Shown here in pieces: positions 1 through 59,901 of a stretch of 64,000 nt of DNA. Made by a program: the position numbers and the translations under genes. Location of the stretch: assembly GCA_030429765.1 (NCBI GenBank), contig JAUIER010000001.1:1014-65013 (forward strand), in the 5' to 3' direction. The notes below the pieces were generated by a model. That model ran no database searches. It saw only the letters and a list, made by a program, of their open reading frames with translations, and was not told the DNA's origin. Each line of letters opens with the position of its first letter. The first letter of the stretch is position 1. The DNA is from a bacterium. Lineage in GTDB: Bacteria > Omnitrophota > Gorgyraeia > Zapsychrales > Zapsychraceae.

Positions 1-3000
1 AATGAAGGGAATCAAGGATATTACGTCGATCGAACCAATATCATGGGGCAGAACGGTACGCCAAAGTCCGGTCGTGAGGTATTTGTTGATACCACCACCA
101 GCATGGCCGAGTTCTTCCAACGACGAGCCCAGCGAAACGGAAAGCCGATTCGACTGGTGATTAAGCCGGGCATCGGTGGTCAACACACGCCGTTTCAGGG
201 TATCGCGGATGTATTCCAGGTCGTTGTTCCCGAGACCGGAGAAGTCGTTGGGGAATACGAACTAGGCAAAAATTATGAAGAGTCTATCAACAACGCCTTG
301 CAGCAATTGGGAGCGACATGGGATCAGGTTGCCGTTATTCCAAGCTCCAAGTCAGGTTCTACCGATGAGACGATGATGATCTTTGTTGATGTCCTCAAAG
401 CCGGATTGAAAAATGTGGCGAATATGCGGGGGATTGACGGAGAAATTTTTGCGGATGCGACGATCAACTATTTAAATCGTATCAACATTGTCGATGGACA
501 AGAAGTTGCCGGAGAGGATCTCTTCAAAGATTTTGATTTCGACACGCTGGTTTCCGAGATATCTGCCAGAGATTCTAGAGTCAATGCTCAGGTTTCAATG
601 GCCGTTTTTCGGACCGTTTTAGGGAATATGTTTTTCGAGACGACGGATCGACCGGAGGCATCAAGACTGTCGGCGTTTATCCGAAATTCCGGATTGGATC
701 AGGTGTTGGGTGAAGACGCGCCGGGGTTTGGCGCAATGTTCGATAATGTCGGCGGACGCTGGACGGGTGATCTGCATATGATGGCGTTCCTCGCCTTCAA
801 CAATCTTAACCCGAATGAATATTGGCAAACCCGCTACGAGGGCATTCAGTCGGTGAGAAACGGGACACACACGGGTGTTGTCTTGGCCGACAAAATTGTC
901 AATGAACGGATTCAGAAGATCGCGCTGGTTGTTCCCGACGAGTATTTCTGGGCGGCCAAGGGGACGGAGCAGAATTTCAATGAAAGTATCTGGCAGGAAG
1001 GATTTGCTAACCTGCGAGCGATTAAGGCCAGCAATTGGACGGCGCAGCAGCAATACTACACCGGACCGGGCGCGCTGGTTGTTAACGCGTCAGACCTGGC
1101 AATTGACCAGGGCTACAATGTCTACAATATCGACCGCGTCAATCAGTCAGCAGGGGCACAAACGTTGGCGAATGAGTTTGGAAGATTGTTCACCACATTT
1201 TACGGGATGACGTATACGACCGGAAACCGGTTGATCGCCCGTGCCGTAAACCAGGCGGGTTATGGAACGGAAGATATTGATGTCAACGACCTTAATAATC
1301 CGGCGACACAGATACTTCAGGAAAATTTGTATCTCAGACAACCTTATGTGGAGTTAGGAAAGGGTTTGCTGGAGGCGCGTCTCAAAGAATTACAGACACG
1401 TCAGCAGGCGTGGAGTCAGGCCGGTGCCACAGGAACAAGTCCGGTTCGCCAGTCAGAAGTTGAAATGTCGACTCAAGCCCAGCAGCGACAGGTCACCACA
1501 AATGTGCCGGGTATCAGTCTGAATCGCGTTGAAAACGCGCAGCAAATGGCGGATACCATTACGGCGGCCAGAGTCTATGCTGCGCAAACGGATCGTACAT
1601 TTGTGCCGTTCCTTTATGTAGGCGGTAATGAATACGTTGACCTGCGTGAATCCCTGGTGGACATGGGGGTTGAATGGGTCATGCAGGGAACAGGTGATCA
1701 GCATATCAGCTATCAGCAGGTGTTGGCCAACCCGGATCAATATCTGCCGTTTTTCGTGTCTTTTGTGCCGGCGGCGGACCAGTTCCAGGAAGGAACACCG
1801 GCCATCGGATTTGCGAAGTCTTATTTGGATCGCATCAGTCCGAATGTAGTTAGGGATTATTTTGCCCAGGCATCGTTTGAGGCGTTGACAGATCTTCGAC
1901 GGGATCAAGGCGGTTTAGGTGTTTTCATGCGAACCACGGAAAGCCCGGAACGGGTGGCGGAAGTCAAAGAAGCCTTTCGGCAAAGTTTTGCCCAAGCCTT
2001 GGATGAAGGATCCGATATGGCGATGTTAGCCATTACAACCGAAGAATTGGTTGAACTGGTTTATGAGATCAATGAAATCCTACAGATTTTGACAAATAGT
2101 CGAACTAATTTCCAAGACATCATCACAGAAGCCTTTATCCAATCGGATTCTAATGCCCTGGAGATGAGGGCGAATGAAGGTCGATTACCGGATACATACA
2201 CCGTCGATGCCGAGGTCTTTGTAGAAACCTTGAGTGACGGGATTGATATGGATGTCTCGCGAATCATAGGAGCATTCCTGATTCCTTTTAATTCGCCCCG
2301 GGTCATTCAGATTGGATTGGCCGCGGCCGGTTTAAGCCGAGATAACGCCGGATTCGAGCAGCAGGTCCTGGAAGCGGGTGTTGGCCGGCTGGCCTTGAGG
2401 ACCATATCCGATATGGGATTGAGAAAAGAGATTGCCCGATCGTCAAATCCGGTTGTGTACAGCCGGGCCCAAAGCGTTGACGGAGACCGGCCGGTTTTGG
2501 TTATGGACGGTGAGAATTTAATTAACTTCGCCGCAGGTCTGAATGAACTGGCGATGGCGCTTGCCGGCACAGATGTCAGCCGGTTTGACGCGGTATTGGA
2601 GTCTATTGCCGGTCAGGTGGGCAATTCAATTGAGCTCACGAGCGTATACCAGACGGATATGCTGCAGTTATTGCGAAATTTAGCGCGCAATTTAAATGAA
2701 GATGTCGATCGGCTGCAGGATGCGTTGGGATTGGCCTCGAATGCCGCGATCTACCGGGAGTTTGGTGATGTAGATTTGGGGGCGGACACCCCGCCGGCTG
2801 CGGTTATTTCTTTGGCTCCAGTTCAGCCAATTGAACAACCAGTCGATGCGGCGCAAACGTCCGATGACTTCAGAAAAGGGGGGATTGATTTGAACCCCGA
2901 ACTATTGGATCTGCAGATTAAGCGGGATACAGATGGTGTGCCGCTGCCTATTCAGCAGCAGCCGATAGAGAACATGAATATTGACGGATTTTTACCTGTT

Positions 3001-3144
3001 ATCATCAATGTCACACCGATAACAAATTTACCGCTGCTATTGGGTATGGCGGACGGCGAGGCGCTTCCGCAGGAGTTGAGCCTCGAACTCAGTCCAGCCG
3101 ACCACAAGGCCCGGTTAGATGTAGCACATGACGTAGTATCATAA
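1..3144 (+). CDS. Large multidomain protein, 5'-truncated at the window edge. The reading frame is open from nt 1 (N-E-G-N-Q-G-Y-Y-V-D-R-T-N-I upstream of the first Met at 43). The N-terminal ~400 aa resembles a phosphoglucose-isomerase/SIS-like sugar isomerase fold. The C-terminal ~600 aa is unassigned
   Basis: There is no stop codon between nt 1 and the ATG at 43 in frame. Motifs: 'KPGIGGQHTP' (PGI N-terminal GIGGS-like), 'IPSSKSGSTDETM' (SKSGTTxET-like), 'VGGRWTGD' (PGI signature-1-like GGRYS). There is no clear PGI signature 2. The ORF is continuous over 1047+ codons. Confidence 0.55.
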   Translation, partial: NEGNQGYYVDRTNIMGQNGTPKSGREVFVDTTTSMAEFFQRRAQRNGKPIRLVIKPGIGGQHTPFQGIADVFQVVVPETGEVVGEYELGKNYEESINNALQQLGATWDQVAVIPSSKSGSTDETMMIFVDVLKAGLKNVANMRGIDGEIFADATINYLNRINIVDGQEVAGEDLFKDFDFDTLVSEISARDSRVNAQVSMAVFRTVLGNMFFETTDRPEASRLSAFIRNSGLDQVLGEDAPGFGAMFDNVGGRWTGDLHMMAFLAFNNLNPNEYWQTRYEGIQSVRNGTHTGVVLADKIVNERIQKIALVVPDEYFWAAKGTEQNFNESIWQEGFANLRAIKASNWTAQQQYYTGPGALVVNASDLAIDQGYNVYNIDRVNQSAGAQTLANEFGRLFTTFYGMTYTTGNRLIARAVNQAGYGTEDIDVNDLNNPATQILQENLYLRQPYVELGKGLLEARLKELQTRQQAWSQAGATGTSPVRQSEVEMSTQAQQRQVTTNVPGISLNRVENAQQMADTITAARVYAAQTDRTFVPFLYVGGNEYVDLRESLVDMGVEWVMQGTGDQHISYQQVLANPDQYLPFFVSFVPAADQFQEGTPAIGFAKSYLDRISPNVVRDYFAQASFEALTDLRRDQGGLGVFMRTTESPERVAEVKEAFRQSFAQALDEGSDMAMLAITTEELVELVYEINEILQILTNSRTNFQDIITEAFIQSDSNALEMRANEGRLPDTYTVDAEVFVETLSDGIDMDVSRIIGAFLIPFNSPRVIQIGLAAAGLSRDNAGFEQQVLEAGVGRLALRTISDMGLRKEIARSSNPVVYSRAQSVDGDRPVLVMDGENLINFAAGLNELAMALAGTDVSRFDAVLESIAGQVGNSIELTSVYQTDMLQLLRNLARNLNEDVDRLQDALGLASNAAIYREFGDVDLGADTPPAAVISLAPVQPIEQPVDAAQTSDDFRKGGIDLNPELLDLQIKRDTDGVPLPIQQQPIENMNIDGFLPVIINVTPITNLPLLLGMADGEALPQELSLELSPADHKARLDVAHDVVS

Positions 3145-3220
3145 AGACGTCTGCAGCTGATGGGGCACCAGATTGTCCATATCGGCTGTTTGTTCCGATT
3201 CCCCAATCGACAATGTCGAA

Positions 3221-3279
3221 ACAGGGGACACAAACTAGATTCTATGTGCAGAAAATAGGGCGATGTCCCCTGTTTTTTG
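3221..3279 (+). terminator. Candidate rho-independent terminator after the large gene. A perfect 10-bp inverted repeat ACAGGGGACA...TGTCCCCTGT is followed by a T-run
   Basis: Positions 3221-3230 are the exact reverse complement of 3264-3273, followed by TTTTTTG. The loop is long (33 nt), which lowers confidence. Confidence 0.4.
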
Positions 3280-3455
3280 ACAATCCGACCTTCCTTTAAG
3301 CTAAATTTTGCTGGCTTACCGTACCAAATCATATATAATAATACTGTTATAGTTAAAGATTCTTACATCAGATCAAATAATTCTGGCATGCATGGACTTA
3401 CGTCCGAATTCCACCGCCGGAGTTTGATCTCAAATCCTACATAATAGATACCAAA

Positions 3456-4523
3456 ATGGTCAACATTGGACTGATCGGCTGCGGATATTGGGGGCCGAAT
3501 TTGCTGCGTAATTTCATGGATTGTCAGGACGCGACCGTGTCGATGGTGGCTGAACTTGATCCTGAACGGATCGAATATATCCAGCAAAAGTATCCGGGTA
3601 TCAAGACCACACGCGACTATCATGATTTGTTCGGTGATGCGGTTGACGCGGTCGTTATTGCCACACAACCCGCCACGCATTTTGCGTTTGCCAAAGAGGC
3701 CTTAGAGCACGATAAGCATGTGCTCGTCGAGAAACCATTGGCCAAATCAATCCTGGAGGCTGAAGAACTCGTACGGATCGCCCGGCAGCGCGATCTCAAG
3801 TTGATGGTCGGTCATACATTTGAATACAATGAGGCCGTCCGGGAGCTTAAACGGCAGATCCAGCAGGGAACCGTCGGCAAGCCGTATTATCTGTATTCTC
3901 AACGGCTGAATTTCGGTATTGTCCGCAAGGATGTCAATGCGCTATGGAATCTGGCCCCGCATGATGTCTCTATATTGATCCATTTGCTTGAAACCATGCC
4001 CGAGGCGGTGAGCTGCCGCGGGTATGATTTTATTCAACCGGGCATCGACGATGTAATCTTTATGGTGCTGCATTTTCCCAACAATATCATTGCCCACGTT
4101 CAGGTCAGCTGGCTGGACCCGAGCAAAGTCCGCAAAATGACTGTCGTCGGCAGCGATAAAATGATCATATATAACGATATGGATGATCACAAGATCCAGA
4201 TTTATGACAAGGGGATAAAGGTCCAGAATATGGATGAATCGCTGGGACCGTACGATGATTTTGGAAAATATCAGCTGATCAAGCAGGCCGGTGATGTGAG
4301 TTTTCCCAAAATAGATTTTAAAGAACCCCTCAAGGCCGAGTGTGACGATTTCGTAAACAGTATTGTTAACGATACTCAACCGCTGGCCAACGGTGAGAAT
4401 GGTCTGCGTGTCGTGCGGGTGTTGCAAACCGCGCAGGCCTCTATGAACTTAAATGGAGTGACGCTCGACGTGAGAAAAGGATCTCCCGAACCCAAACGGC
4501 CGACGATGGCCACACAATTCTAA
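3456..4523 (+). CDS. Gfo/Idh/MocA-family NAD-binding oxidoreductase, WbpB/WlbA/GnnA-like UDP-sugar 3-dehydrogenase
   Basis: N-terminal Rossmann motif 'IGLIGCGYWGPN', 'EKP' motif, 355 aa. It sits immediately upstream of a DegT aminotransferase. It is a paralog of ORF 25437-26453. Confidence 0.8.
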   Translation: MVNIGLIGCGYWGPNLLRNFMDCQDATVSMVAELDPERIEYIQQKYPGIKTTRDYHDLFGDAVDAVVIATQPATHFAFAKEALEHDKHVLVEKPLAKSILEAEELVRIARQRDLKLMVGHTFEYNEAVRELKRQIQQGTVGKPYYLYSQRLNFGIVRKDVNALWNLAPHDVSILIHLLETMPEAVSCRGYDFIQPGIDDVIFMVLHFPNNIIAHVQVSWLDPSKVRKMTVVGSDKMIIYNDMDDHKIQIYDKGIKVQNMDESLGPYDDFGKYQLIKQAGDVSFPKIDFKEPLKAECDDFVNSIVNDTQPLANGENGLRVVRVLQTAQASMNLNGVTLDVRKGSPEPKRPTMATQF

Positions 4524-4528
4524 ATATC

Positions 4529-5647
4529 ATGATCCCACTAGTAGATTTAAGACGACAGTATCAAAGTATCAAAGATGAAGTGCACACGGCCGTCAATGAA
4601 GCCATCGAAAGCATGGCCTTCATCAACGGACCGCAGATTAAACAATTTGAACGGGACTTCGCACGGATCTCGGGCGCCAAATTCGGCGTCGGTGCCAGTT
4701 CCGGAACCACCGCGTTACAATTGGCTTTAACGGGACTGGGCATTGGTCACGGCGATGAGGTGATCACGGTACCCAACACATTCATCGCGACCACCGAAGC
4801 CATCACGCATAGCGGCGCGCGGGTTGTGTTTGTTGATATCGACGAGCAAACGTACAATATCGATGCGTCCAAGATTGAGGCCGCCATTACGGATAAGACC
4901 CGGGCGATTATCGCGGTCCACCTGTATGGGCAGCCGTGTGATATTGAAGGGGTGTTGGCGGTGGCGCGAAAGCATGATCTCAAGGTGATTTTTGACGCGG
5001 CGCAGGCGCATCTGGCTGAGTATGATGGTAATCCAATCGGCGGGTATGGCGACGCGGTCTGCTATAGTTTCTATCCCGGGAAAAATCTGGGGGCGTACGG
5101 GGACGGAGGTATTGTCCTGACAAACGATGAAGATTTGGCCAAGCGGATGGAGATGCTGGCCGATCACGGGCGCGAAGAAAAGTACGCGCATTTGATGGAA
5201 GGGTTTAATTACCGGCTGTCAGAGATTCAGGCCGCCATTCTGAATGTCAAACTCAAGTATTTACCCGAGTGGACCAAGTCGCGGCAGATGCTCGCCCGGG
5301 AATACGGAAGATTGCTGCAAAGTATGGATGTAGTTTTACCGTATGTCGACGAGAAAATGAGCCATGTGTTTCATTTGTTTGTTGTTCGGCTGCAGCATCG
5401 TGATGAGATAAAATCATATTTAAATGATAAGGGCATCGGTGCTGGAATACACTATCCGATCACCCTTCACACACAGAAGGCGTATAGCTATATGAACCAC
5501 GCGCCGGATGATTTTCCTGTGGCTGAAAGATGCTCCAAGGAAATCCTGTCATTGCCGATGTTTCCTGAATTAACAATCGAGGACCTGCAGTTGATCGTCC
5601 GGGAGCTGGCATCCGCCCAGGACAAATCCAGAACGCAATATGTATAG
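4529..5647 (+). CDS. DegT/DnrJ/EryC1/StrS-family PLP-dependent sugar aminotransferase (WbpE/GnnB-like)
   Basis: 'FYPGKNLGAYGDGG' Lys-PLP motif and the family-typical N-terminus 'IPLVDLRRQY'. The start is 6 nt after the oxidoreductase stop. Confidence 0.85.
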   Translation: MIPLVDLRRQYQSIKDEVHTAVNEAIESMAFINGPQIKQFERDFARISGAKFGVGASSGTTALQLALTGLGIGHGDEVITVPNTFIATTEAITHSGARVVFVDIDEQTYNIDASKIEAAITDKTRAIIAVHLYGQPCDIEGVLAVARKHDLKVIFDAAQAHLAEYDGNPIGGYGDAVCYSFYPGKNLGAYGDGGIVLTNDEDLAKRMEMLADHGREEKYAHLMEGFNYRLSEIQAAILNVKLKYLPEWTKSRQMLAREYGRLLQSMDVVLPYVDEKMSHVFHLFVVRLQHRDEIKSYLNDKGIGAGIHYPITLHTQKAYSYMNHAPDDFPVAERCSKEILSLPMFPELTIEDLQLIVRELASAQDKSRTQYV

Positions 5648-6584
5648 AGACAAGAAAATTGCGCTGGTGATTCCCGCGTACAATGAATCCCGACTGATTC
5701 AGCCTACCCTGAAGAATGTTCCCGAAGTGATTGATAAGATTTACGTGGTCGATGACTGCAGTACGGACAATATGACCAGTGTTGTCCAGTCGTTGGCTAA
5801 GGAAGATCCGCGCATCGAGCTTATTGAACATGAAGAAAATCAAGGGCCGGGCGGCGCGATTATCACCGGCTATCGGGCGTCTTCGAGAGATAACTATGAT
5901 ATCGCCGTTGTCGTCGGGGGAGATTATCAAATGCCTCTCGACGAAGTCCACGCGTTTCTTGATCCGTTGATCGATAAACAAGCGGACTACACCAAAGGTA
6001 ACCGATTTTTTGTCTGGGACAAGACACGTTCCAAGATGCCCAAGATCCGGATCTTCGGAAACATTATCATCACTGCCATGACCAAGATCGCGTCGGGTTA
6101 CTACAAGATCATGGATGTCGTCGACGGATATACCGCCATTACCAAACAGGCGATTGATATTGTCGACTGGGATATTGCCTGGAAGCGCTACGGTTATCCC
6201 ATGGATTTCCTGATCAGACTAAACGCGTACGGACAGAAGGTCAAAGATATTCCACGTACGCCGATTTATCTGGAAGGCGAGCGGCAATCGCAGATCAAGG
6301 GATTGCGTTATGCCATACGCGTGGCGCCGATGCTGATCCGCGGATTTTTCTGGCGCATGTTTTTCCGATATATCTACCTGGACTTTCATCCGCTGGTCTT
6401 GTTTTTTATCTGCGGGATTCTGCTGTTCCCCTTCGGCGTGGCCTTAGGATTTGAATTGATCTACCGGGAGTTCTTTGCCGGCGGAGCGACAGGGCCCAAG
6501 GCGATACTCTGTGCGTTGTCTATTATCACGGGGCTGCAGTTCTTATTGTTCGGTATGTGGTTCGATATGGAGATGAGCAAGTAA
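5640..6584 (+). CDS. Family-2 glycosyltransferase with C-terminal TM helices (polyprenyl-phosphate sugar synthase, GtrB/ArnC/DPM1-like)
   Basis: 'IPAYNE...VVDDCSTD' GT2 DXD-type N-terminus. Two C-terminal hydrophobic helices. There is an 8-nt overlap with the upstream gene. Confidence 0.8.
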   Translation: MYRDKKIALVIPAYNESRLIQPTLKNVPEVIDKIYVVDDCSTDNMTSVVQSLAKEDPRIELIEHEENQGPGGAIITGYRASSRDNYDIAVVVGGDYQMPLDEVHAFLDPLIDKQADYTKGNRFFVWDKTRSKMPKIRIFGNIIITAMTKIASGYYKIMDVVDGYTAITKQAIDIVDWDIAWKRYGYPMDFLIRLNAYGQKVKDIPRTPIYLEGERQSQIKGLRYAIRVAPMLIRGFFWRMFFRYIYLDFHPLVLFFICGILLFPFGVALGFELIYREFFAGGATGPKAILCALSIITGLQFLLFGMWFDMEMSK

Positions 6585-6612
6585 TCCGACGGCTATCCGG
6601 AAAGTATCATTT

Positions 6613-7653
6613 ATGCGAATTGTAGTTGATATAGGACATCCCGCCCACGTTCACTTCTTTAAAAATTTTATCCACGAATACCGCCGACGGGGACATGAGA
6701 TCATGTTAACCACGACGGATAAGGACATCGCCCTCGAGCTGCTTAATGATTATGGATTTGAATACACGCTCCTGGGACGCACGGGCAAGTCTCTGTTACG
6801 TAAAGTACTGAGTATCCCGATCCTGGATTGGCGTCTTTATCAAGCCGTCAGACGGTTCAAACCGGACCTCTTTATGGGATTGGGATCTATCCGTTGCGCC
6901 CATATCGCTCGGCTGACGGGTAAGCGCTCCATCATCTTCAATGATACCGAGGCGACGATCAAAGAACATATCCTTTATTACCCGTTCGCCGATCGCGTGG
7001 TTTCACCGAGATGTTTCGGCCGGGATTTCGGTAAAAAACATATCCGTTATGACGGCTATCATGAACTGGCTTATCTGCATCCGGATCGCTTCACGCCGGA
7101 TCCCACCGTTCTGCAGGAATTGAATATTTCACCTGATGAAAAAATATTTATCGTTCGCTTTATTTCGTGGGAGGCCACCCATGATATTGGACAGCGGGGA
7201 TTTACCGATGAAGGCAAGAGACGGTTGATCAATGCGCTCGATCAGCATGGACGGGTGATTATCACCTCTGAAGGATCATTGCCGGACGACCTTCAGAAAT
7301 TCCAAATGCGGATCAGTCCGACCCGCATGCATGATGTGCTCGCGCATGCCACGATGTGTATCGGCGAGGGGGCGACAATGGCCTCGGAGGCCGTTGTGCT
7401 GGGGATTCCGGTTGTTTTCTTAAGTACATTGGTACACAATTATCTGCATGAACAGGCGGATGAATATCAGTTGATGCATATCTTCAATGAGCAGGAAGGA
7501 GCGATCCGTAAAGTCGAAGAGCTTTTGCAAGTGCCTAATCTGCGCGAACAATGGCAGTCTCGACGAGAACGGATGTTGGCCGACAAGGTCGATGTCACGG
7601 CGTTTATGCTGGACTTTGTGGATCAGTTTGCACGAGAGTTGATCAAGTCATGA
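6613..7653 (+). CDS. DUF354-like protein (predicted GT-B-fold glycosyltransferase/epimerase-like)
   Basis: The N-terminus 'MRIVVDIGHPAHVHFFKNFI' matches the DUF354 signature as I remember it. 346 aa. Confidence 0.5.
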   Translation: MRIVVDIGHPAHVHFFKNFIHEYRRRGHEIMLTTTDKDIALELLNDYGFEYTLLGRTGKSLLRKVLSIPILDWRLYQAVRRFKPDLFMGLGSIRCAHIARLTGKRSIIFNDTEATIKEHILYYPFADRVVSPRCFGRDFGKKHIRYDGYHELAYLHPDRFTPDPTVLQELNISPDEKIFIVRFISWEATHDIGQRGFTDEGKRRLINALDQHGRVIITSEGSLPDDLQKFQMRISPTRMHDVLAHATMCIGEGATMASEAVVLGIPVVFLSTLVHNYLHEQADEYQLMHIFNEQEGAIRKVEELLQVPNLREQWQSRRERMLADKVDVTAFMLDFVDQFARELIKS

Positions 7654-8711
7654 AATTATTGATCGCAGCGCGGCTTAATTCGGAATATAAATTACGGACG
7701 ACCCTCGAGCCGATTCTGCAATTATCGATGATCGATCAGGTGTATCTGGTGCGGCGATATCCGATCGAGCTGCCCAAGACCATCTGCTATAGCCCGCCGG
7801 TTCTACTTCGCAAATCTATCCTTACGACCGAACTCTACCGTGTATGGAAGATCATGATGCTTTGTCTGTTCAAACGGCCGGACGGACTCATGGGGATTCA
7901 CTTTATCTTTCATTGCGTCTATACCGCGCTGGCGAAAATGATCTTCCGTATCCCTTTGATTATGCTGATCATCGAAAGCCCGGATAAATACCGACAGCAT
8001 CCTGTTTTCAATTTTCTGATGAGACGGGCGGATCTGGTGGGGGTGAGAGGGAATAATTCCCTGAAGTTTTTATCGAACACCGCGAAGGTCGACGAACCCC
8101 GCATATTTGTTACACCCGATGTTCATCGCTTTCAGAATCCCGAAGAGATCAAGGAAGCGGAAAAAAATTATGATTTGGTCTTTGTCGGATATTACACCAA
8201 GGCCAAGCGTATCGATATTCTGCTGGAGGTGGTTGACCGGATCCGGCAGCAAAAACCGGATGTGAGTCTGGCCCTCGTCGGAGATGGCCCCCTACATGAT
8301 TCGGTGGTGGAAAAGATTGACCAATTGGGATTGCATGACAATGTGGACCGGTTGGGGCATGTCAAAAGCATCTATCCTTATCTGAAAAGTTCGCGGATTT
8401 TTATCATGACGTCCCAGACAGAAGGATTGCCAACGGTGCTGCTGGAGGCCCTGGGGTTTGGATTGCCGTTCGTGGTGCCGGATGTAGGCGATGTCCGGGA
8501 CCTGGCGATCGACGATTACAACGCGATTGTGGTTGAAAAATTGGATGTCGACGCATTTGCCGCCGCCTGTCTCAAACTATTAGAGGATGATGAATATTAC
8601 CAAACGGTTCACGCCAATGCCTGCGCGTTTCGGGATGAACTAAAAGACCGCCATCGGTTTGAGTCGGTCCAGCGGCTGTGGGAAGAAAAGCTGAAGGTGA
8701 CGCTTCAATGA
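7650..8711 (+). CDS. Family-4 (GT-B) glycosyltransferase
   Basis: 'EGLPTVLLEALGFGLPFVVPDVGD' EX7E motif. The track ORF starts at 7551 but overlaps the previous gene. An ATG at 7650 forms an ATGA overlap with the upstream stop and gives 'MKLLIAARL...'. Confidence 0.75.
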   Translation: MKLLIAARLNSEYKLRTTLEPILQLSMIDQVYLVRRYPIELPKTICYSPPVLLRKSILTTELYRVWKIMMLCLFKRPDGLMGIHFIFHCVYTALAKMIFRIPLIMLIIESPDKYRQHPVFNFLMRRADLVGVRGNNSLKFLSNTAKVDEPRIFVTPDVHRFQNPEEIKEAEKNYDLVFVGYYTKAKRIDILLEVVDRIRQQKPDVSLALVGDGPLHDSVVEKIDQLGLHDNVDRLGHVKSIYPYLKSSRIFIMTSQTEGLPTVLLEALGFGLPFVVPDVGDVRDLAIDDYNAIVVEKLDVDAFAAACLKLLEDDEYYQTVHANACAFRDELKDRHRFESVQRLWEEKLKVTLQ

Positions 8712-10819
8712 AGGAGAACAAGTTGGGACACCGCGGGATCCACGTGTTGATGGGCATCGCCGCATTGATCTGGATGATTCCCTTTGCGGCGTTTTTTAAG
8801 CGCGAGATCGCCCTTTTCCCCGACGGATGGTCCTATTTCAACTGGACACGCTTTGTATATGACAATATTACACGAGGTGTGTATCCGCTGTGGCAGCCGT
8901 TTGATAATTGGGGATACCCGGTAGGGTTCAAGATTCGGTTTCTAGGCGAGTTCAATCCGCTGTTCTTGCTGATGATGATCCCCTATAAGCTGGGGATATC
9001 CTATCCTGTGGTTTATTTTGCATATGCGGTCGGATACTTTTTGCTCGGTATTTACGGGTTTTATCGAATCTGCCTGCATTTGACGCAGGATCAAATTTCG
9101 GCCTATCTGGGTTTTATCATATTGCTTTTTTCCAATATGGGGATCGCGATATTTTTCAATTATTGCGAGATTGCCTTATTTGTGCCGGCGGTTTGGTTCT
9201 TTTATTTTTTCCTGACGTTTTGTTCCGGGCCGACACGTTCATCACTCATCGGGATGACATTCGCGGTGATGATGATCTTGACGACCTACATGCCGTTTTA
9301 TTTTCTGACTGCTTTTTTAGCCTTTTTGGTCATCGCTGCTGTTTTGTACATGCGCGATTTGAAACCGATTCTGGTCCAGAGTCTCCGGTTTTTAATCCAG
9401 CATCGCGGATTAACGGTCTTGTGTGTGGCCGCTATACTTGTTTCAGCCGTACCGGGTTATATCACCTACAAGGAAACCGGGTCCAGCGAATTCAGTTATG
9501 ATCATCGAAAGGCTGACTCGTCGGAGAGCGCGGTGACAACAGGGGTCTCGATGGTCAACGCAGGGAGTATTCTGGGGCCGGTGACATGGCGGGGACTGTT
9601 ATTCGGACAAAAGTATCAGGACAATTATTTGTCCTACTTTTTTCTGCCGGCCGGGGCCATATTTATCCTGTTGATGACCATTTTTAATCCGTTTAACCGG
9701 CGGCTCGCGCTGTGTTTGGGGGTGGCCCTGGGTATGTTCTATATTGTGATCACCAACGCGTCGGGGGTGACACAGTTTCTGTATGATCGCGTGTTCTTTT
9801 TTAGAATCATGCGGAATATTTTCTATCTATTCTATCTGGCCGTTCCATTTGTAGTTTTTTTCGTGGTGGAACAGCTTCGGATTTGGATGGCGTCGGAAAA
9901 GCAGAATGGATCGATCTCAAGAATTTGGATTCTGTTGGTGGCGACGGGACTGATCGTATATCTCAAGATTCAAGGTCACGCGCTGGTATCTATTTATATC
10001 TCGGTTATCGGCATAGCATCGGCGCTGATTTTTAACGTTCAAAATTTTTCAAGATGGGCCTTTGCACTAGCCGTGACGTTTTTCTTTTTGGTTCATCCGA
10101 TCGATGTGTACCGTCATTATGTGTCGAATGTGGCTGAGGTCATCCCGGCCGGGGAAATCTTCGAGCCGCGGCATCCGAAATTTCACTATCAACGACCGGA
10201 CTTCGGCACCAAGCCGGCGTTTGCGGCCCATGAGTTTGAGGAAAGTTCAGGGTTCACCCTACAGAAATTTGCCGGGACGCAGGGGGCGGCATTGCTGCAG
10301 AACAATACCGATCCCGGGGCGATGAGCCGATATACACGCAATAAATTTATTGCCTATGATCAGACCGTCACGCAATCGTTCGCATCACAAAACTGGTTTC
10401 AGATCGGCCGGCATTTGATTGAATTGCAGAACGAGGCGATTGTCGTGGGCGACGGAGAATCAATCCGTCAGGCGCCGGCGTCGGCCCAGGTGATTTCGTC
10501 GGATTCGGACTTGTTCCGGGTCACGCACTTTGATTTGAACACCATCAGTTTTGAAACCAATTTCCCGACGAGAAAATTTATCGTTTACAACGATAGCTAT
10601 CACAGCGGATGGACGGCCCGTGTCAATGGAGAAGCCGGACCGATATGGCAGAGTAATATCGCTTTTAAAGGGCTGTGGCTTGAGGCGGGACCGAATCTAG
10701 TCCAGTTACGCTTCGGTTCGGTATGGCTCGAACGATTTTATTTTTTGCTGATGATCGTATTCATGTTGGTCTTTGCCGGGTTAATCCATCTACTTGTCCA
10801 GGAGCGATCGCGTGAATAA
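8708..10819 (+). CDS. Large polytopic membrane protein, YfhO-like/GT-C-like (many TM helices, a C-terminal extracytoplasmic domain, and a terminal TM anchor)
   Basis: ~13 predicted hydrophobic helices, then a ~200-aa soluble segment, then a final helix 'FLLMIVFMLVFAGLIHLL'. The ATG at 8708 overlaps the GT4 stop (ATGA). Confidence 0.5.
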   Translation: MKENKLGHRGIHVLMGIAALIWMIPFAAFFKREIALFPDGWSYFNWTRFVYDNITRGVYPLWQPFDNWGYPVGFKIRFLGEFNPLFLLMMIPYKLGISYPVVYFAYAVGYFLLGIYGFYRICLHLTQDQISAYLGFIILLFSNMGIAIFFNYCEIALFVPAVWFFYFFLTFCSGPTRSSLIGMTFAVMMILTTYMPFYFLTAFLAFLVIAAVLYMRDLKPILVQSLRFLIQHRGLTVLCVAAILVSAVPGYITYKETGSSEFSYDHRKADSSESAVTTGVSMVNAGSILGPVTWRGLLFGQKYQDNYLSYFFLPAGAIFILLMTIFNPFNRRLALCLGVALGMFYIVITNASGVTQFLYDRVFFFRIMRNIFYLFYLAVPFVVFFVVEQLRIWMASEKQNGSISRIWILLVATGLIVYLKIQGHALVSIYISVIGIASALIFNVQNFSRWAFALAVTFFFLVHPIDVYRHYVSNVAEVIPAGEIFEPRHPKFHYQRPDFGTKPAFAAHEFEESSGFTLQKFAGTQGAALLQNNTDPGAMSRYTRNKFIAYDQTVTQSFASQNWFQIGRHLIELQNEAIVVGDGESIRQAPASAQVISSDSDLFRVTHFDLNTISFETNFPTRKFIVYNDSYHSGWTARVNGEAGPIWQSNIAFKGLWLEAGPNLVQLRFGSVWLERFYFLLMIVFMLVFAGLIHLLVQERSRE

Positions 10820-11507
10820 ATATGTGGGGTGGATCAATCGATCGTTGGTTGTTTATCTTATTGTTGGTGGATTGATTTATGTGACGATCGATCATCAACA
10901 GGCCACGATCAAGATTCTCAATCATGACCGGAATGCCGCGCGCTATGTCAATCGACACGCGCTTCGGCCGGATGTTGAATTCGACGAGGCCAAGTTTTAT
11001 AAAGCGGGAGAGTATCAGCGGCGATTGATCAAACTTTTACCCGATGAGTATTTGAGTCATGGTGTTTTGGGTTATATTTATTATCAGCTAGGCGATATCC
11101 CGCGGGCGATACGGTCTTATCAGCGCGCGGCGCGAGTGCGGCCGGAACTATTCGGGTTTCATTACAACCTCGGCTTGATCCATTTTCAAAATCAGGATTG
11201 GGAGCAGGCCGTTGCTTCCTTTGATAAGGCGCTGGCTGCAGGACCCACGGCATCAATCGAACATCATCAGGTGATTGCGCGCCAAATGCTTGACGGCCCC
11301 AATCAGCAGGCGTGGATCCAGTCCAAGGCCGGACAACTCAAACAGGCCTATGAATTGACGCAGCTTTTAAGAAGCAAGGCACAGCAGCGGCAGGGACTCA
11401 GTGAGGCTGAGAACGCATCCTTGTACTACTACGTGCCGGAAATGGAAACGGGGATTAAACCATTAGATGTTATTGTTAACCATCGGAAAACAGGTGAATC
11501 TTTATGA
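10812..11507 (+). CDS. TPR-repeat protein with an N-terminal TM anchor
   Basis: The TPR-like repeats ('[19 protein letters not shown]', '[16 protein letters not shown]') suggest this call. The track ORF starts with TTG at 10794. GTG at 10812 overlaps the upstream stop, so the start is uncertain. Confidence 0.55.
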
Positions 11508-12088
11508 GCAAATCAAACGTGAAGGTCCATGAAACGGCCTGGGTGGATGAAGGGGCAACCATTGGGGACGGCACAGCGATCTGGCATTTTTGTCATGTCA
11601 TGAGCGGCGCGCGCATCGGTCAAAATTGCAAGATCGGACAAAATGTCGTTGTACATCCCACCGCGGTGATTGGAAACGGGGTTAAGATCCAGAACAATGT
11701 CTCTGTGTACGATGCCGTGACACTGGAGGATGAGGTGTTTTGCGGTCCGTCCTGTGTGTTTACCAATATTATTAATCCGCGTTCGGCGATCAATCGGAAT
11801 TCTGATAAATTCTTCCGGCGGACGTTGGTGAAAAAGGGTGCGACCATCGGCGCGAATGCCACCATAGTCTGCGGCGTAACGCTGGGGCGGTATGCCTTCG
11901 TGGGGGCCGGAGCGGTGGTTACGCGGGACGTGCCGGACTACACGCTGGTTTACGGAAACCCTGCCCGCGCAATGGGTTGGGCATGTGAATGCGGCGAGCG
12001 GATTGAATTTTCAGCGTCCCGGGCGACTTGTGCCGCCTGTCAGCGTAAATACAGCTATGACAACGGTTTAGTGTCCAACGTCCTGTAA
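11504..12088 (+). CDS. Left-handed beta-helix (hexapeptide) N-acetyltransferase, WbpD/WlbB-like (UDP-2-acetamido-3-amino-2,3-dideoxy sugar N-acetyltransferase). It has a C-terminal Cys4 tail
   Basis: '[25 protein letters not shown]...[10 protein letters not shown]...[11 protein letters not shown]' closely resembles WbpD-family proteins. The C-terminus is 'CECG...CAAC'. There is an ATGA overlap with the TPR gene. Confidence 0.75.
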
Positions 12089-12115: not shown

Positions 12116-12144
12116 TTGCCAAGCCCAGAGCGGATGTATATAAT
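12116..12144 (+). promoter_or_regulatory. Sigma70-type promoter upstream of trxA: TTGCCA, 17-nt spacer, TATAAT
   Basis: TTGCCA is at 12116-12121 and TATAAT at 12139-12144. An AAAGGAG RBS sits at 12183-12189, 5 nt before the trxA ATG. A GGATGT..ACATCC inverted repeat overlaps the -10 element. Confidence 0.5.
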
Positions 12145-14381: not shown

Positions 14382-15365
14382 ATGAAAAAATTTTTGAATT
14401 ACATACTCCGAGTCGGAATCAGTGTGGCCCTGTTATGGTGGCTGTTTTCCAAAAAGATTGACCTGCCCAGCACGATTGAGGTCTTGAAAAATGCCGACTT
14501 GCCGTTTATCGGTCTGGCATTCGCCATCTTTGTCTTCACGAACATTGTAATTTTGATCCGCTGGATCATATTTATTCGCGCTCTCGAACTGGATATCCCT
14601 TTAGGGGAAATCATTCGATATTGTCTGATCGGTTTGTTCGGAAATCTGTTCCTGCCAAGCGCGATCGGCGGCGACGCGATCAAGATCTATGGGCTTTGCA
14701 AAAGCACACCGCATAAGGCCAAGGTAGTGGCTTCGATTCTGCTCGACCGGCTCTGCGGATATATTGGACTGGTGGTTGTGGTGATCGGCGCGTTTATCGT
14801 CGGGCACAAACACATTACCGACCCCACCATTACCTACGCGATTTTGCTGGTCATTCCTGGAACATTTGTCGTTATGACGGTGTTATTCAATGAAGCGGTG
14901 TATGAATTCTGCTGCCGTTTGTTCAACGGCATTCCCAAGATTAAAAACGCGTTGATGCAGATGCATTATGATATTGCGTTACTCAAAGGAAATAAAAAAT
15001 CCGGATTTGCCGGCCTGGCCCTGTCATGTGTGTCGCATGTCCTGCTGGCTGTGTTGTCATTTTATATCGCCAAAGGGTTGGGGCAGAGTGTCAGCCTGAT
15101 CTATTTTCTGCTCTTCTTCCCGCTGATCAGTATGGCGGCGGCCTTGCCGTCTCTGGGAGGATTGGGCGTGCGTGAGGCGGCCGCGGTGTACTTTTTTGGC
15201 AAGATCGGGATCGATTCGGGAATCGCGGCGAGTATCACGCTGATGACGTACATCTACATGGTGATCATCGGACTTATTGGGGGAGCGGTTTATGTCTTTA
15301 CACTATCTTCTGGACGGATACAACATCCTGCACCAGATGCCCCGGCTGACGGAACTGGACATTGA
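14382..15365 (+). CDS. Membrane protein with a flippase-like / LPG-synthase TM-region domain (UPF0104)
   Basis: ~8 TM helices. 'PSAIGGDAIKIYG' is the conserved GGD motif of this family. Confidence 0.6.
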   Translation: MKKFLNYILRVGISVALLWWLFSKKIDLPSTIEVLKNADLPFIGLAFAIFVFTNIVILIRWIIFIRALELDIPLGEIIRYCLIGLFGNLFLPSAIGGDAIKIYGLCKSTPHKAKVVASILLDRLCGYIGLVVVVIGAFIVGHKHITDPTITYAILLVIPGTFVVMTVLFNEAVYEFCCRLFNGIPKIKNALMQMHYDIALLKGNKKSGFAGLALSCVSHVLLAVLSFYIAKGLGQSVSLIYFLLFFPLISMAAALPSLGGLGVREAAAVYFFGKIGIDSGIAASITLMTYIYMVIIGLIGGAVYVFTLSSGRIQHPAPDAPADGTGH

Positions 15366-56195: not shown

Positions 56196-57526
56196 GAGTC
56201 CCCCCACAGAATATCGAAGCGGAGAAATCCGTTCTTGGAGCCATGCTCATTGATGATGAAGCCATCGGTCAGGCGGTGGAAATCCTCGATGAAGCATGGT
56301 TTTACAATGAAGCCCATCGAATTATTTATCAGGCCATTCTTGATCTCTATAATGATCGCAAGAATGTCGATCTGATTACCATTTCCGATAAGCTGAAAAA
56401 TGACAAACAGCTCGATGCCGTCGGCGGAGTCACCTATCTGTCGACGATTATCGACTTTGTCCCTACCTCGGCCAATGTGGCGCATTACGCGCAAATCGTC
56501 AAGGAGAAAGGAATTCTCCGTCAGCTTATTAAAAACTCCACACAAATCATCACCGAAAGTTACGACGCAACAGGTGAAATCGAAGATATCGTGGATAACG
56601 CCGAAAAGCTCATATTCGAGATATCGGATATGAAGCAAAAGCAAAGGTCATACCACATCAAAGAGCTGGTCAAGGATGGGATCGAAACCATTGATAAACT
56701 TTATCAGCGTAAAGAAAGTCTGACCGGAGTCCCAACCGGATTCAACGAAATCGACAAAATGACCTCCGGTCTGCAAAAGGCGGATCTGATCATCGTGGCG
56801 GCCCGTCCGTCGATGGGTAAGACGGCCTTTGCGGTGACGATTGCGGAAAATTATGCCATCCATCATGGCGGAAGCGTGGCAATTTTCAGCTTGGAGATGT
56901 CCAAGGAGCAATTGGTCCAGCGGATGCTGTGTTCACAGGCCCGGGTGGATGCTCACTCCGTGCGATCCGGATTTCTTTCGCCGTCAGACTGGCCGCTCCT
57001 AACCAAGGCCGCGGCTGACTTGTCGAACGCCAATATCTTCATTGATGATACGCCGGCGATATCCGCCATGGAATTACGGGCCAAGGCCAGACGTCTCAAG
57101 GCTAACCATGACATTCAGTTGATCCTACTTGATTACATCCAGCTCATGCGGGGGACCACAAAATCCGAAAGTCGTCAGCAGGAAATTTCAGAAATCTCCC
57201 GATCGCTCAAAGCTATTGGGCGAGAATTGAGTGTGCCGGTGATTGCCTTAAGTCAGTTGTCACGTCTGGTTGAACAGCGTCAGGATCACCGTCCGCAACT
57301 TTCAGATTTACGCGAGTCCGGCGCGATCGAGCAGGATGCCGATGTTGTTTTCCTTTTAATGCGCGAAGAATATTACAATCCCACCGAAGAGAATCGCGGC
57401 GTTGCCGATGCGATTATTGCTAAACAACGAAACGGACCTGTTGGAACAGTTAAACTTGCATTCCTAAAAGAATATGTGCGTTTTGAAAATCTTGCCAACG
57501 TCGAAAATCTTGCACATGTTGATTGA
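56177..57526 (+). CDS. dnaB: Replicative DNA helicase
   Basis: 'PPQNIEAEKSVLGAML' N-terminus, Walker A 'ARPSMGKTAFA', 'ALSQLSR'. 449 aa. Confidence 0.95.
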   Translation: MGNQEVRVPPQNIEAEKSVLGAMLIDDEAIGQAVEILDEAWFYNEAHRIIYQAILDLYNDRKNVDLITISDKLKNDKQLDAVGGVTYLSTIIDFVPTSANVAHYAQIVKEKGILRQLIKNSTQIITESYDATGEIEDIVDNAEKLIFEISDMKQKQRSYHIKELVKDGIETIDKLYQRKESLTGVPTGFNEIDKMTSGLQKADLIIVAARPSMGKTAFAVTIAENYAIHHGGSVAIFSLEMSKEQLVQRMLCSQARVDAHSVRSGFLSPSDWPLLTKAAADLSNANIFIDDTPAISAMELRAKARRLKANHDIQLILLDYIQLMRGTTKSESRQQEISEISRSLKAIGRELSVPVIALSQLSRLVEQRQDHRPQLSDLRESGAIEQDADVVFLLMREEYYNPTEENRGVADAIIAKQRNGPVGTVKLAFLKEYVRFENLANVENLAHVD

Positions 57527-57570
57527 CACGCACTTTGATTGATCCTATAATCAGACAAACACGTCAAAAA

Positions 57571-59901
57571 ATGAAAAAATTATTCCAATTTTCAACGCTA
57601 TTTATAGCATTCTTTATTGTCTTTACATCTACGTTTTCATTTGCCCAGTCATTTTCAAATCCGATGGCCGGCGAGGAGAAGGTACGTAAAGTCAAATCCA
57701 TCGAGGTGATCGGTAACAAAACGATCAGCATCGCCACCATTCTTTCCAAAATCAAGACCAGGGTCGGACAGGATTATCTGCAGGGGGTTGTCAGTGACGA
57801 CCTCAAACGACTGTACAATACCGGCTATTTTTCAGACATCCGCGTTGACCGTCAGCTGGAGGACGGCGCGTTCAAGGTGTCGATATTTGTCGAGGAAAAG
57901 CCCATTATCGAGGAGATCACCTTCTCTAAAACCAAGTATATAAAGGGTAAAGTCCTCAAGAAAAAGATCAAATCTATCGTTGGGAAATTTCTGGACAATA
58001 AGGATCTCAAGGATGATGAAAAAACCATTCTCGCATTATATGAGAAGAAAGGGCTGACGTCCGCTGAGATCAAGGCCGAGACGTTTGTGGATGAAGCCAC
58101 GAATAAGGCCAGCATCCATTTTGTTGTTCAGGAAGGACAGAAGATCCGTATTTCCCAGATCAATATTTTCGGCAATGAGTCGTTTAGCGACCGTAAAATC
58201 CGCAAGGTGATTAAGACCAAGCCCAAGAAATTTGTCATCAGCTCAGGATTCCTTAAGGAAGACGAGCTTGATGAAGATATGGACCGGATCGTGTCGTTCT
58301 ATGAACAGCAAGGGTATATTGATGCGTCCGTTGACTATAAGGTCGACACGTTGGGTAAAGGGGATATCGAAGTCGATATTCAGATCAAGGAAGGTCGGCG
58401 CTACTCGGTGGGTGATGTGACGGTTTCAGGTAATCAGGTGATCTCGGACAAAGAAGTATTGCGCGTCATGAATGAGATTACACCGGGAGGCGTTTTCAGT
58501 CGTGAAAAGCTGGGAGTCGATGTTGCCAATATTCGTACCCTGTACTTTGACCGGGGATACATTTTTGCGCGGGTCAGCGAGTCGACGTCGTTGGATTCAG
58601 GGACTGGTAAAGTCGGTGTCCGGATCGAGATTCTCGAGGGGGATGTGGCTTATGTAGAGCGTGTACGTATCGAAGGGAATACACGAACCAAGGACCGTGT
58701 TATCCGACGAGAGCTGAAAATGCTGCCGGGCGATCGATTTGACGGTGAGCAGCTGAGAAAAAGCAAAGAGCGCCTGACATCTATGGGATATTTTGAAGAT
58801 GTCAGTTTCGATATCGAGGATACCGGCGCTCCGGATCGTAAAGACCTTGTCGTGCAGGTCAAGGAAGCCAAGACCGGGACGTTTAGTTTTGGCGGCGGCT
58901 TTAGTACGGTCGACCGCATCGTTGGATTTATCGAAGTCGAACAGCGCAATTTCGACATTATGAACTGGCCTACCTTTACAGGAGGCGGTCAGCAGCTGGA
59001 AGTTCGTGCCGAGACGGGTTCGTCACGTAGCAACTACCGATTGAGTTTTACCGAGCCGTGGATGTTCGGTCATCCAATTTCGGGTGGATTCGACGCGTTC
59101 CGATCAGAACGTGATCGAGAGGACGATACAGGTTATGCCTATGATGAGAAGCGAACGGGTGGAGTCCTTCGCCTCGGGAAACGATTCAGCGATCGTTATT
59201 CCGGCAATGTCTCCTACAAGCTTGAGGAAGTTGAGATTGAGAATTTTGAAGCCGGCGTCTCGGCGGATCTGCTTGCCGAAGCGGGAGAGAACCTGGTGAG
59301 TACGTTGGGATTTGGATTCACGGCAGACGGACGCAACAGCTTTATCAATCCGACCAAAGGTTGGATCTCACGTCATGATTTGGATTTTGCCGGGAGCTGG
59401 TTGGGCGGAGACAAAGACTTTATCCGGTACCAGACATCAAACAGTGTCTTTATTCCATTGAAATGGAAATCAGTACTCGAGTTTCGATTACGGGCCGGAG
59501 TGGTCGATGCCATTTCCGATTCGAATAAGGTGCCGATCTTTGAGCGATTCTTTGCCGGTGGGGCAAGCAGTATTCGCGGGTATGATGAGCGGGATGTCGG
59601 CCCGTTAGACACGGCCGTCCTGGATCCAATCGGTGGGGAGGCTATGCTCGTCGGGAATATCGAGTATACCATTCCGGTGATCCAGTACATCAAACTGGCG
59701 GCCTTCTATGACATTGGAAATGTCTGGGCTGACATCAAGGATTTCGGTGGAGGAAATTTCAAATCGGGCGTCGGTCTGGGACTCAGGGTTAAGACACCGA
59801 TCGGACCGATCAATCTGGATTACGGATATCCATTGGATGATGTTCCGACCGAGGCCGACCGTGAAGGAAAATTCTACTTTAGTGTAAGTCGTGGATTCTA
59901 A
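57571..59901 (+). CDS. bamA: Outer membrane protein assembly factor BamA (Omp85)
   Basis: A signal peptide, repeated POTRA-like segments, and a C-terminal beta-barrel with 'GGGFSTVDR' and a terminal 'YFSVSRGF'. The start was moved to the ATG at 57571. Confidence 0.85.
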   Translation: MKKLFQFSTLFIAFFIVFTSTFSFAQSFSNPMAGEEKVRKVKSIEVIGNKTISIATILSKIKTRVGQDYLQGVVSDDLKRLYNTGYFSDIRVDRQLEDGAFKVSIFVEEKPIIEEITFSKTKYIKGKVLKKKIKSIVGKFLDNKDLKDDEKTILALYEKKGLTSAEIKAETFVDEATNKASIHFVVQEGQKIRISQINIFGNESFSDRKIRKVIKTKPKKFVISSGFLKEDELDEDMDRIVSFYEQQGYIDASVDYKVDTLGKGDIEVDIQIKEGRRYSVGDVTVSGNQVISDKEVLRVMNEITPGGVFSREKLGVDVANIRTLYFDRGYIFARVSESTSLDSGTGKVGVRIEILEGDVAYVERVRIEGNTRTKDRVIRRELKMLPGDRFDGEQLRKSKERLTSMGYFEDVSFDIEDTGAPDRKDLVVQVKEAKTGTFSFGGGFSTVDRIVGFIEVEQRNFDIMNWPTFTGGGQQLEVRAETGSSRSNYRLSFTEPWMFGHPISGGFDAFRSERDREDDTGYAYDEKRTGGVLRLGKRFSDRYSGNVSYKLEEVEIENFEAGVSADLLAEAGENLVSTLGFGFTADGRNSFINPTKGWISRHDLDFAGSWLGGDKDFIRYQTSNSVFIPLKWKSVLEFRLRAGVVDAISDSNKVPIFERFFAGGASSIRGYDERDVGPLDTAVLDPIGGEAMLVGNIEYTIPVIQYIKLAAFYDIGNVWADIKDFGGGNFKSGVGLGLRVKTPIGPINLDYGYPLDDVPTEADREGKFYFSVSRGF

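Follow-up and report, generated by a model that had tools for sequence, protein, structure and literature searches.

Positions 3456-12088 of a 64-kb stretch of an Omnitrophota contig carry an eight-gene cluster that looks like one operon, and we rate it an even call that this operon encodes a three-component-type extracytoplasmic glycosylation pathway equipped with its own sugar supply. The stretch, hereafter the window, comprises all 64,000 nucleotides analyzed (contig JAUIER010000001.1 of assembly GCA_030429765.1, family Zapsychraceae, positions 1,014 to 65,013), and coordinates are counted from its first letter. All eight open reading frames (ORFs) lie in the same direction on the plus strand, and each is backed by domain or homology evidence:

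3456..4523, plus strand, 355 amino acids (aa): GFO1, a Gfo/Idh/MocA oxidoreductase, predicted UDP-N-acetylglucosamine (UDP-GlcNAc) 3-dehydrogenase
4529..5647, plus strand, 372 aa: DegT, a pyridoxal phosphate (PLP) aminotransferase of the DegT family, predicted to act at C-3 and to make the 3-amino sugar UDP-GlcNAc3N
5640..6584, plus strand, 314 aa: GT2a, a predicted polyprenyl-phosphate sugar synthase
6613..7653, plus strand, 346 aa: DUF354, a PF04007 protein of GT-B fold, for which the gene caller's start is 6703
7650..8711, plus strand, 353 aa: GT4, a GT-B, retaining-type glycosyltransferase
8708..10819, plus strand, 703 aa: GT-C, a membrane protein of GT-C fold, predicted glycosyltransferase and remote relative of YfhO
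10812..11507, plus strand, 231 aa: TPR, a membrane-anchored tetratricopeptide repeat (TPR) protein
11504..12088, plus strand, 194 aa: AcT1, a WlbB/WbpD-type hexapeptide N-acetyltransferase, predicted to act on the 3-amino group

In the pathway whose substrates, sugar, membrane topology, flipping step and acceptor we infer, GFO1 would oxidize UDP-GlcNAc at C-3, DegT would aminate the resulting keto sugar to UDP-GlcNAc3N, and the WlbB-like AcT1 would acetylate this product to UDP-2,3-diacetamido-2,3-dideoxyglucose (UDP-GlcNAc3NAc). GT2a, a DPMS/ArnC/GtrB-type enzyme with two C-terminal helices, would then transfer the sugar to polyprenyl (undecaprenyl) phosphate at the cytoplasmic face. The lipid-linked sugar would be flipped, for which a PF03706 protein encoded downstream is the candidate, and GT-C, together with its membrane-anchored periplasmic TPR partner, would attach the sugar to an acceptor at the outer face of the inner membrane. 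The two cytoplasmic GT-B proteins, GT4 and DUF354, may build this acceptor or extend the lipid-linked sugar.

The window genes recur identically on a Logan contig (L001) and on a 296-kb NCBI contig, and we took corrected gene starts from L001 together with the lengths of orthologues. This moved the GT4 start to 7650 (353 aa instead of 386), that of the TPR gene to a GTG codon at 10812, and that of the membrane protein ten codons further in, to 8708; the latter protein, previously described as 713 aa long, thus has 703. With these starts, the sequence contains five start/stop overlaps and two spacers: ATGA overlaps at the DUF354/GT4, GT4/GT-C and TPR/AcT1 junctions, 8-nt overlaps at DegT/GT2a (ATGTATAG) and GT-C/TPR, and spacers of 5 nt between the GnnA-like GFO1 and the adjoining DegT and of 28 nt between GT2a and DUF354. 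An earlier note on this DNA, made from the sequence alone, had described the genes from GT2 to the acetyltransferase as chained by start/stop overlaps, which holds for all of these junctions except that between GT2a and DUF354; its proposal that a single unit serves a periplasmic glycan is supported in that the eight genes look like one operon for an extracytoplasmic glycan. The top sigma-70-like match of the region (12116-12144, TTGCCA-17-TATAAT, 11/12) falls just past the final stop codon of the operon and precedes a thioredoxin-panD-def-lipA gene set. Its position fits an operon end at 12088; however, promoter-like sites are in total as frequent as expected by chance, so the match is weak evidence.

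By its closest families and profiles, GT2a is a predicted polyprenyl-phosphate sugar synthase (DPMS/ArnC/AglJ-like) and no ordinary chain-extending transferase. Its best NCBIfam match is AglJ (5e-23, full length), followed by PpgS, dolichyl-phosphate (Dol-P) hexose transferase and ArnC, and the family profile matched PfDPMS of Pyrococcus (5mlz, 2.9e-15), ArnC (3e-8) and GtrB (1e-3) in the PDB. Two hydrophobic helices lie at its C terminus (residues 252-270 and 288-306). These matches speak against the proposal that the GT2 protein is one link in a sequential chain of glycosyltransferases. With GT2a as a polyprenyl-phosphate sugar synthase, the pathway logic would become that of a lipid-linked donor plus a GT-C enzyme. 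GT2a is also the most conserved protein of the cluster, with 84% identity to the copy in the nearest Omnitrophota and 65-69% to those of KSB1, SAR324 and Hydrogenedentota.

The sugar supply is represented by GFO1, DegT and AcT1. GFO1 matches PF01408 and its C-terminal domains and contains an EKP motif at residues 92-94. Among NCBIfam families it fits NF040723 best, that of the archaeal UDP-GlcNAc 3-dehydrogenase, with 181 bits against a cut-off of 450. When a family profile built from six sequences was searched against the PDB and the top 60 entries were considered, GnnA (7bvj) ranked third (1.5e-30, full length) and was the best functionally characterized solved relative, ahead of the WlbA entries 3q2k (1.8e-20) and 3q2i (3e-16); no WbpB entry was among the 60. 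A search of the PDB with the single GFO1 sequence likewise found no WlbA or WbpB at E<=1e-10, whereas GnnA appeared. WbpB/WlbA are thus predicted to be more distant from GFO1 than are GnnA and the archaeal UDP-GlcNAc 3-dehydrogenase, and the former description of the oxidoreductase as WbpB-like does not stand. DegT matches PF01041 (E 2e-119) and carries its PLP lysine at residue 185, within an SFYPGK motif. Its top PDB relative, 7b0d (7e-116), is named glutamine--scyllo-inositol transaminase; further relatives are QdtB (1e-103), DesV and WbpE (1e-79, full length). DegT is thus a predicted sugar C-3 aminotransferase that groups with QdtB, DesV and WbpE, and its likeness to WbpE is one of regiochemistry, not of orthology. 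A 4-aminotransferase such as perosamine synthase or ArnB was considered and rejected. AcT1 matches WlbB (PDB 3mqg) over residues 7-188 of its 194 (1.5e-64, 220 bits), which makes it a clear predicted relative of WlbB/WbpD. The groupings that the earlier note had named as counter-evidence, namely with an unrelated sugar pathway such as that of perosamine or with a non-WbpD clade, therefore do not apply to DegT and AcT1.

The same genes recur, in part, elsewhere. The named genomes with the most closely related clusters are metagenome-assembled genomes (MAGs) of Candidatus Omnitrophota, and the gene order is kept in five related Omnitrophota contigs (L002-L006); the complete eight-gene arrangement is present only in close relatives. 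L006 keeps the terminal acetyltransferase (74% identical to AcT1) and adds Epimerase_2, an asparagine-synthase-type amidotransferase and WbuX/Y/Z-like genes. In the same chromosomal slot, contig L050 has the order GFO-DegT-GT2-deacetylase-DUF354-GT4, with no GT-C/TPR pair. A KSB1 contig (L052) and a marine contig (L054) both carry GFO, acetyltransferase, DegT and GT2 contiguously and in this order, with identities to the window proteins of 45%, 41-45%, 49-50% and, for GT2a, 66-68%, and in both a GT4 gene and a PF03706 membrane protein gene follow the four-gene module. This recurrent module is the main evidence that GT2a may use the diacetamido sugar as donor. On a further contig, L051, oxidoreductase and hexapeptide acetyltransferase are fused in one 536-aa protein (1943-3553), in a cluster that also contains a UDP-sugar 6-dehydrogenase, DegT, GT2, DUF354 and Epimerase_2. 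The claim that oxidoreductase, aminotransferase and N-acetyltransferase work as a set toward a 2-acetamido-3-acetamido sugar is upheld by the WlbB match, the C-3 relatives of DegT, the contiguity in other genomes and the L051 fusion.

In L050, a related Omnitrophota cluster, the polysaccharide-deacetylase-like gene (5965-6996) comes after GT2, much as ArnD, NaxD and LgmC do in lipid A amino-sugar modification. This hints at versions of the pathway in which the lipid-linked sugar would carry an exposed free amine.

Which 2,3-diacetamido sugar the three enzymes would make bears on a further reading, the classical WbpB/E/D (WlbA/C/B) route to UDP-2,3-diacetamido-2,3-dideoxy-(gluc/mann)uronic acid for an O-antigen-like polymer, with WbpA and WbpI encoded elsewhere. 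The close homology of AcT1 to WlbB, the match of DegT to WbpE, the epimerase-like fold of DUF354 (below), and the Epimerase_2, amidotransferase and/or 6-dehydrogenase genes of L006 and L051 would all suit it. However, among the window ORFs of at least 330 aa, none has a UDPG_MGDP_dh domain (WbpA-type 6-dehydrogenase) or an Epimerase_2 (PF02350) domain (canonical 2-epimerase of the WbpI type), so that the product is likely to be UDP-GlcNAc3NAc rather than a uronic acid. The outranking of WlbA by GnnA and the archaeal dehydrogenase, with WbpB outside the top 60, and a neighboring transferase that resembles a lipid-phosphate sugar synthase, not an O-unit transferase, also argue against the uronic acid route, which we regard as quite unlikely. 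In Methanococcus maripaludis, the MMP0352/MMP0351/MMP0350 route to UDP-GlcNAc3NAc starts from UDP-GlcNAc itself. The simplest product of the window enzymes is likely the same compound, with UDP-GlcNAc likewise as the direct starting point.

At the other end of the predicted pathway stands the 703-aa membrane protein, which has no match in Pfam (even at E=10) or NCBIfam. In an AlphaFold 2 model, built from 8 input sequences (predicted local distance difference test score (pLDDT) 72, predicted template modeling score 0.79), some 11 membrane helices at the N terminus are followed by a beta-rich domain (545-670) and by one last helix (679-697). Its top Foldseek neighbors in the PDB are nearly all GT-C enzymes (STT3, AftD, EmbB, PglB, AglB and Pmt4), with high probabilities and weak E-values (0.02-1), and the beta domain aligns with carbohydrate-binding modules (AftD, CBM35), which favors a glycan as acceptor. 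Among 150 relatives, D39, an aspartate in the first loop, is kept in 92%, and W62, a YxPFYF motif, an RN pair and a C-terminal NxAFKG motif are also conserved. The label YfhO-like, used previously, is borne out for the GT-C superfamily and for the architecture, in which hydropathy and model agree on a polytopic N-terminal domain, a large outer soluble domain and a last C-terminal helix; it fails on the curated YfhO family, PF09586, which the window protein does not match at E<=10 and which five of eight close relatives match weakly (best 9.1e-8). We therefore file the protein as a predicted GT-C enzyme and remote YfhO relative, outside the YfhO family as the curated model defines it.

This GT-C family is closely associated with TPR proteins. 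The window TPR protein matches TPR_1, TPR_2 and TPR_11 and has an N-terminal hydrophobic helix (8-26). A TPR gene lies directly downstream of the GT-C homologue, on the same strand, in 27 of 39 full loci, and the two are naturally fused into proteins of 1065-1075 aa in L019 (10001-13195) and in representative P0087, which supports a physical partnership of the window proteins. GT-C and TPR thus form, to judge from these loci, a conserved unit, which the earlier note had overlooked. The GT-C family had seemed very rare in a word-indexed search (8 matches), an impression overturned by an exhaustive profile search that returned over 21,000 cluster representatives at E<=1e-3, 476 of them at E<=1e-30. 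A scan of one genome per species gave 41 loci, often several per genome and sometimes in tandem, nearly all of them in Omnitrophota or in MAGs labeled 'uncultured Planctomycetales'. In L022, a GT-C/TPR pair abuts the paralogous GFO2/AcT2/GT2b module, whose window counterpart is described below. Present beside some donor modules, as in L022, and absent from others, as in L050, the pair looks like an exchangeable last step that has been attached repeatedly.

The candidate flippase, a weak assignment, is encoded 2.3 kb downstream of the operon:

14424..15365, plus strand: PF03706 (LPG_synthase_TM, MprF-flippase-like) membrane protein

It matches PF03706 at 1e-38, and its downstream position is kept in L002, L004-L006 and L050. 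PF03706 genes also lie after the GFO-AcT-DegT-GT2 module in KSB1 (L052, 12927-13886) and in the marine contig (L054, 14531-15460); orthology among the copies of the window, L052 and L054 was undetectable by BLAST. Of the window ORFs of 75-260 aa, only MlaE and one antisense ORF have at least three hydrophobic helices.

The two remaining proteins of the operon are GT4 and DUF354. GT4 matches PF00534 (4.5e-33) and has an E-x7-E motif at 258-266. DUF354 matches PF04007 over positions 2-336 of its 346 residues (66.3 bits against a cut-off of 22) and is 47-50% identical to methanogen proteins. Its AlphaFold 2 model (pLDDT 91.7) has a confident GT-B fold, for which Foldseek returned UDP-GlcNAc 2-epimerases at template modeling (TM) scores of 0.63-0.73, with WecB/MnaA highest (0.72-0.73), and GT1/MurG transferases close behind (0.58-0.67). 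The GHPAH and DTE motifs look GT1-like; the family profile found no sequence match in the PDB, and a literature search found no characterization of DUF354. The protein had been counted as a transferase in a glycosyltransferase chain, but only the GT-B fold can be assigned. We also considered DUF354 as a candidate for the absent 2-epimerase: the fold and the UDP-sugar dehydrogenase neighbors in archaea lean toward this role, but a canonical Epimerase_2 co-occurs with DUF354 in L006 and L051, and the two motifs point to GT1.

In methanogens (L045-L049), DUF354 genes immediately follow a gene for a WbuX-like amidotransferase (weak QueC match) and/or immediately precede one for a UDP-sugar dehydrogenase. 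These archaeal clusters each hold a polytopic protein of about 640 aa with 12-15 helices and no Pfam match. We considered these proteins as relatives of the window GT-C and detected no homology.

An oligosaccharide pathway would give both GT-B proteins a task: GT2a would start an Agl-like glycan on polyprenyl monophosphate, DUF354 and GT4 would extend it in the cytoplasm, and after flipping GT-C would transfer it en bloc, possibly to proteins chosen by the TPR partner. AglJ starts Dol-P-linked glycans in Haloferax, and AglJ is the best curated family of GT2a. The cluster lacks an initiating phosphoglycosyltransferase yet has two GT-B proteins, the methanogen clusters combine GT2a-like and DUF354 genes with their polytopic proteins, and GFO, DegT, GT2, DUF354 and GT4 cohere in L050 even without GT-C. 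There is also a eukaryotic precedent for acceptor choice in the TMTC enzymes, in which TPR modules joined to a GT-C domain recognize protein substrates. Against this, GT2a is 65-69% identical across bacterial phyla and hence not specifically archaeal, the archaeal polytopic proteins have no detectable homology to the window GT-C, and the beta domain of GT-C resembles carbohydrate-binding modules. Moreover, the characterized enzymes of the YfhO family transfer single sugars from undecaprenyl phosphate (C55-P) donors (PMC5836110, PMC8035078). On balance we consider the en bloc pathway unlikely, though it is the main rival reading.

A broader proposal concerns the GT-C/TPR pairs as a class. They may be periplasmic protein or surface glycosyltransferases that expanded in Omnitrophota, with the TPR protein choosing the acceptor as in TMTC, and with a polyprenyl-phosphate 2,3-diacetamido sugar, or a short oligosaccharide built by DUF354 and GT4, as donor. 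This is a doubtful proposal. If it were true, DUF354 would gain its first function, and the occurrence of GT2a at 65-69% identity in several diderm phyla would point to a widespread donor lipid.

The single-sugar, three-component-type pathway remains the reading that we prefer, and several observations weigh against it. A model in which one sugar is transferred does not explain the roles of GT4 and DUF354. In the closest relatives, L002-L005, the operon ends without an acetyltransferase gene, and L050 has the donor module without GT-C/TPR, so that GT-C is no obligatory partner of that module. No small flippase of the GtrA, SMR or MATE type was found in the window. The GFO1 score, far below the equivalog cut-off, makes the substrate assignment a prediction and not an established one, and the characterized substrate of WlbB is the uronic acid form. 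Finally, the GT-C assignment draws on a model of medium quality (pLDDT 72) and on Foldseek E-values of 0.02-1.

A second, paralogous module, also overlooked before, lies at 19958-27750 of the window. Its GFO2 is 40% identical to GFO1, with NF040723 again the best curated family (181-187 bits for the two proteins, against 450), and its AcT2 is 37% identical to AcT1. Its GT2b resembles Dol-P-hexose transferase and PpgS and lacks a membrane helix. As no aminotransferase is encoded within the module, the DegT gene at 4529, the only one for two GFO paralogues in the window, may serve both modules. It also contains polytopic proteins:

within 19958-27750, minus strand: two polytopic proteins of 462 aa and 456 aa (the latter PMT_2), 25% identical to each other
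within 19958-27750: a 638-aa polytopic protein with a weak Agl23 match

We compared the window GT-C with these three proteins and found no homology.

The host is a diderm, as the window encodes BamA, Skp-LpxD, an LpxC-FabZ fusion, LpxA and MlaEFD. The genes near its far end are:

57523-59901: BamA
59906-60409: a 167-aa ORF without annotation, between BamA and lpxD
60424-61548: lpxD
61505-62854: LpxC fused to a FabZ/FabA-like dehydratase in one 449-aa ORF
62937-63722: lpxA

Since the host makes lipid A (lpxD, lpxC-fabZ and lpxA at 60424-63722), GFO1 and DegT might instead act as GnnA and GnnB do, supplying UDP-GlcNAc3N to LpxA for 2,3-diamino lipid A, either alone or besides their use in the operon. 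The rank of GnnA among the solved relatives of the GFO family is consistent with such a role, as is the single DegT for two oxidoreductases. However, the pair shares its operon with a predicted 3-N-acetyltransferase and lipid-phosphate sugar synthase, company that is kept in three phyla, whereas the lpx genes are 48 kb distant, and a 3-amine once acetylated could not be acylated by LpxA. We hold a lipid A role to be improbable.

Upstream of the operon, positions 43-3144 encode a protein of 1033 aa that matches nothing in Pfam or the PDB; a phosphoglucose isomerase-like enzyme, suggested by an SKSGSTDE motif, was considered and is supported by neither database. The same slot holds giant proteins in relatives (L002, 1-4381; L050, 1-2608), namely one of more than 2604 aa with a weak fructose bisphosphatase match and one of more than 4030 aa with pyruvate phosphate dikinase domains. 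Multi-enzyme giant proteins have been reported for Omnitrophota (bioRxiv 10.64898/2026.06.07.730766), and the upstream-slot proteins fit this description.

The result is a gene-cluster prediction in a metagenome-assembled genome and brings no new principle: the logic of the pathway is already known, and what is unusual is the predicted sugar and the final enzyme pair, GT-C/TPR. If the prediction is true, polyprenyl-phosphate-GlcNAc3NAc would be a new donor for extracytoplasmic glycosylation. Its supply module of four genes, GFO-DegT-AcT-GT2, is kept at least in Omnitrophota, in KSB1 and in one marine lineage. Omnitrophota are uncultured and possibly host-dependent nanobacteria, and the cluster offers a handle on DUF354 and on the YfhO-related GT-C and its TPR partner, two uncharacterized families of which the second is multi-copy in this phylum. 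It also calls for caution in annotation, as its domain names taken by themselves would suggest an ordinary lipopolysaccharide or O-antigen cluster.

Among known systems, the predicted pathway is most readily set beside the three-component systems that modify O-antigen (GtrB/GtrA/Gtr*), lipoteichoic acid (CsbB-GtcA-YfhO, GtlA-GtlB) and lipid A (ArnC-ArnE/F-ArnT), with which it would share a GT2 synthase with C-terminal helices and a polytopic GT-C enzyme. The modeled GT-C fold and the conserved acidic residue placed in the first outer loop (D39) agree with those enzymes, and the operon also houses genes for sugar-nucleotide tailoring, among them one for a DegT-type aminotransferase, just as the arn operon does. 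In contrast to these systems, the window has no GtrA/SMR/MATE flippase gene, its GT-C has a TPR partner, and its operon contains two additional GT-B genes, DUF354 and GT4; the host is a diderm Omnitrophota, whereas the characterized YfhO enzymes are from Firmicutes. We know of no three-component system that uses GlcNAc3NAc, the donor sugar predicted here.

The sugar module shares C-3 oxidation, transamination and N-acetylation of a UDP-2-acetamido sugar with the pathways to UDP-ManNAc3NAcA of P. aeruginosa (WbpA/B/E/D/I) and Bordetella (WlbA/C/B/D), but the window oxidoreductase comes from another, GnnA/archaeal-like branch, and with no 6-dehydrogenase or 2-epimerase nearby the product is probably no uronic acid. 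The archaeal MMP0352/0351/0350 route resembles the predicted one in starting from UDP-GlcNAc and in the family, NF040723, that best fits both window GFO proteins; it differs in that the window host is bacterial and that its two GFO proteins score only 181-187 bits against the cut-off of 450. In archaea, the GlcNAc3NAc sugar is further oxidized and epimerized for N-glycans. With GnnA/GnnB of Acidithiobacillus and Leptospira, the window has in common an adjacent Gfo/Idh/MocA oxidoreductase and DegT, here predicted to act on UDP-GlcNAc, yet the partners of the window pair are an N-acetyltransferase and a lipid-phosphate transferase instead of lpx genes. Finally, the combination of a GT-C membrane domain with a non-cytoplasmic TPR domain recalls eukaryotic TMTC1-4 and bacterial PMT_2-TPR fusions, a likeness that extends to outright fusion in L019 and P0087. 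Here, however, the GT-C family is YfhO-related rather than PMT, and the TPR protein is usually encoded by a separate, translationally coupled gene.

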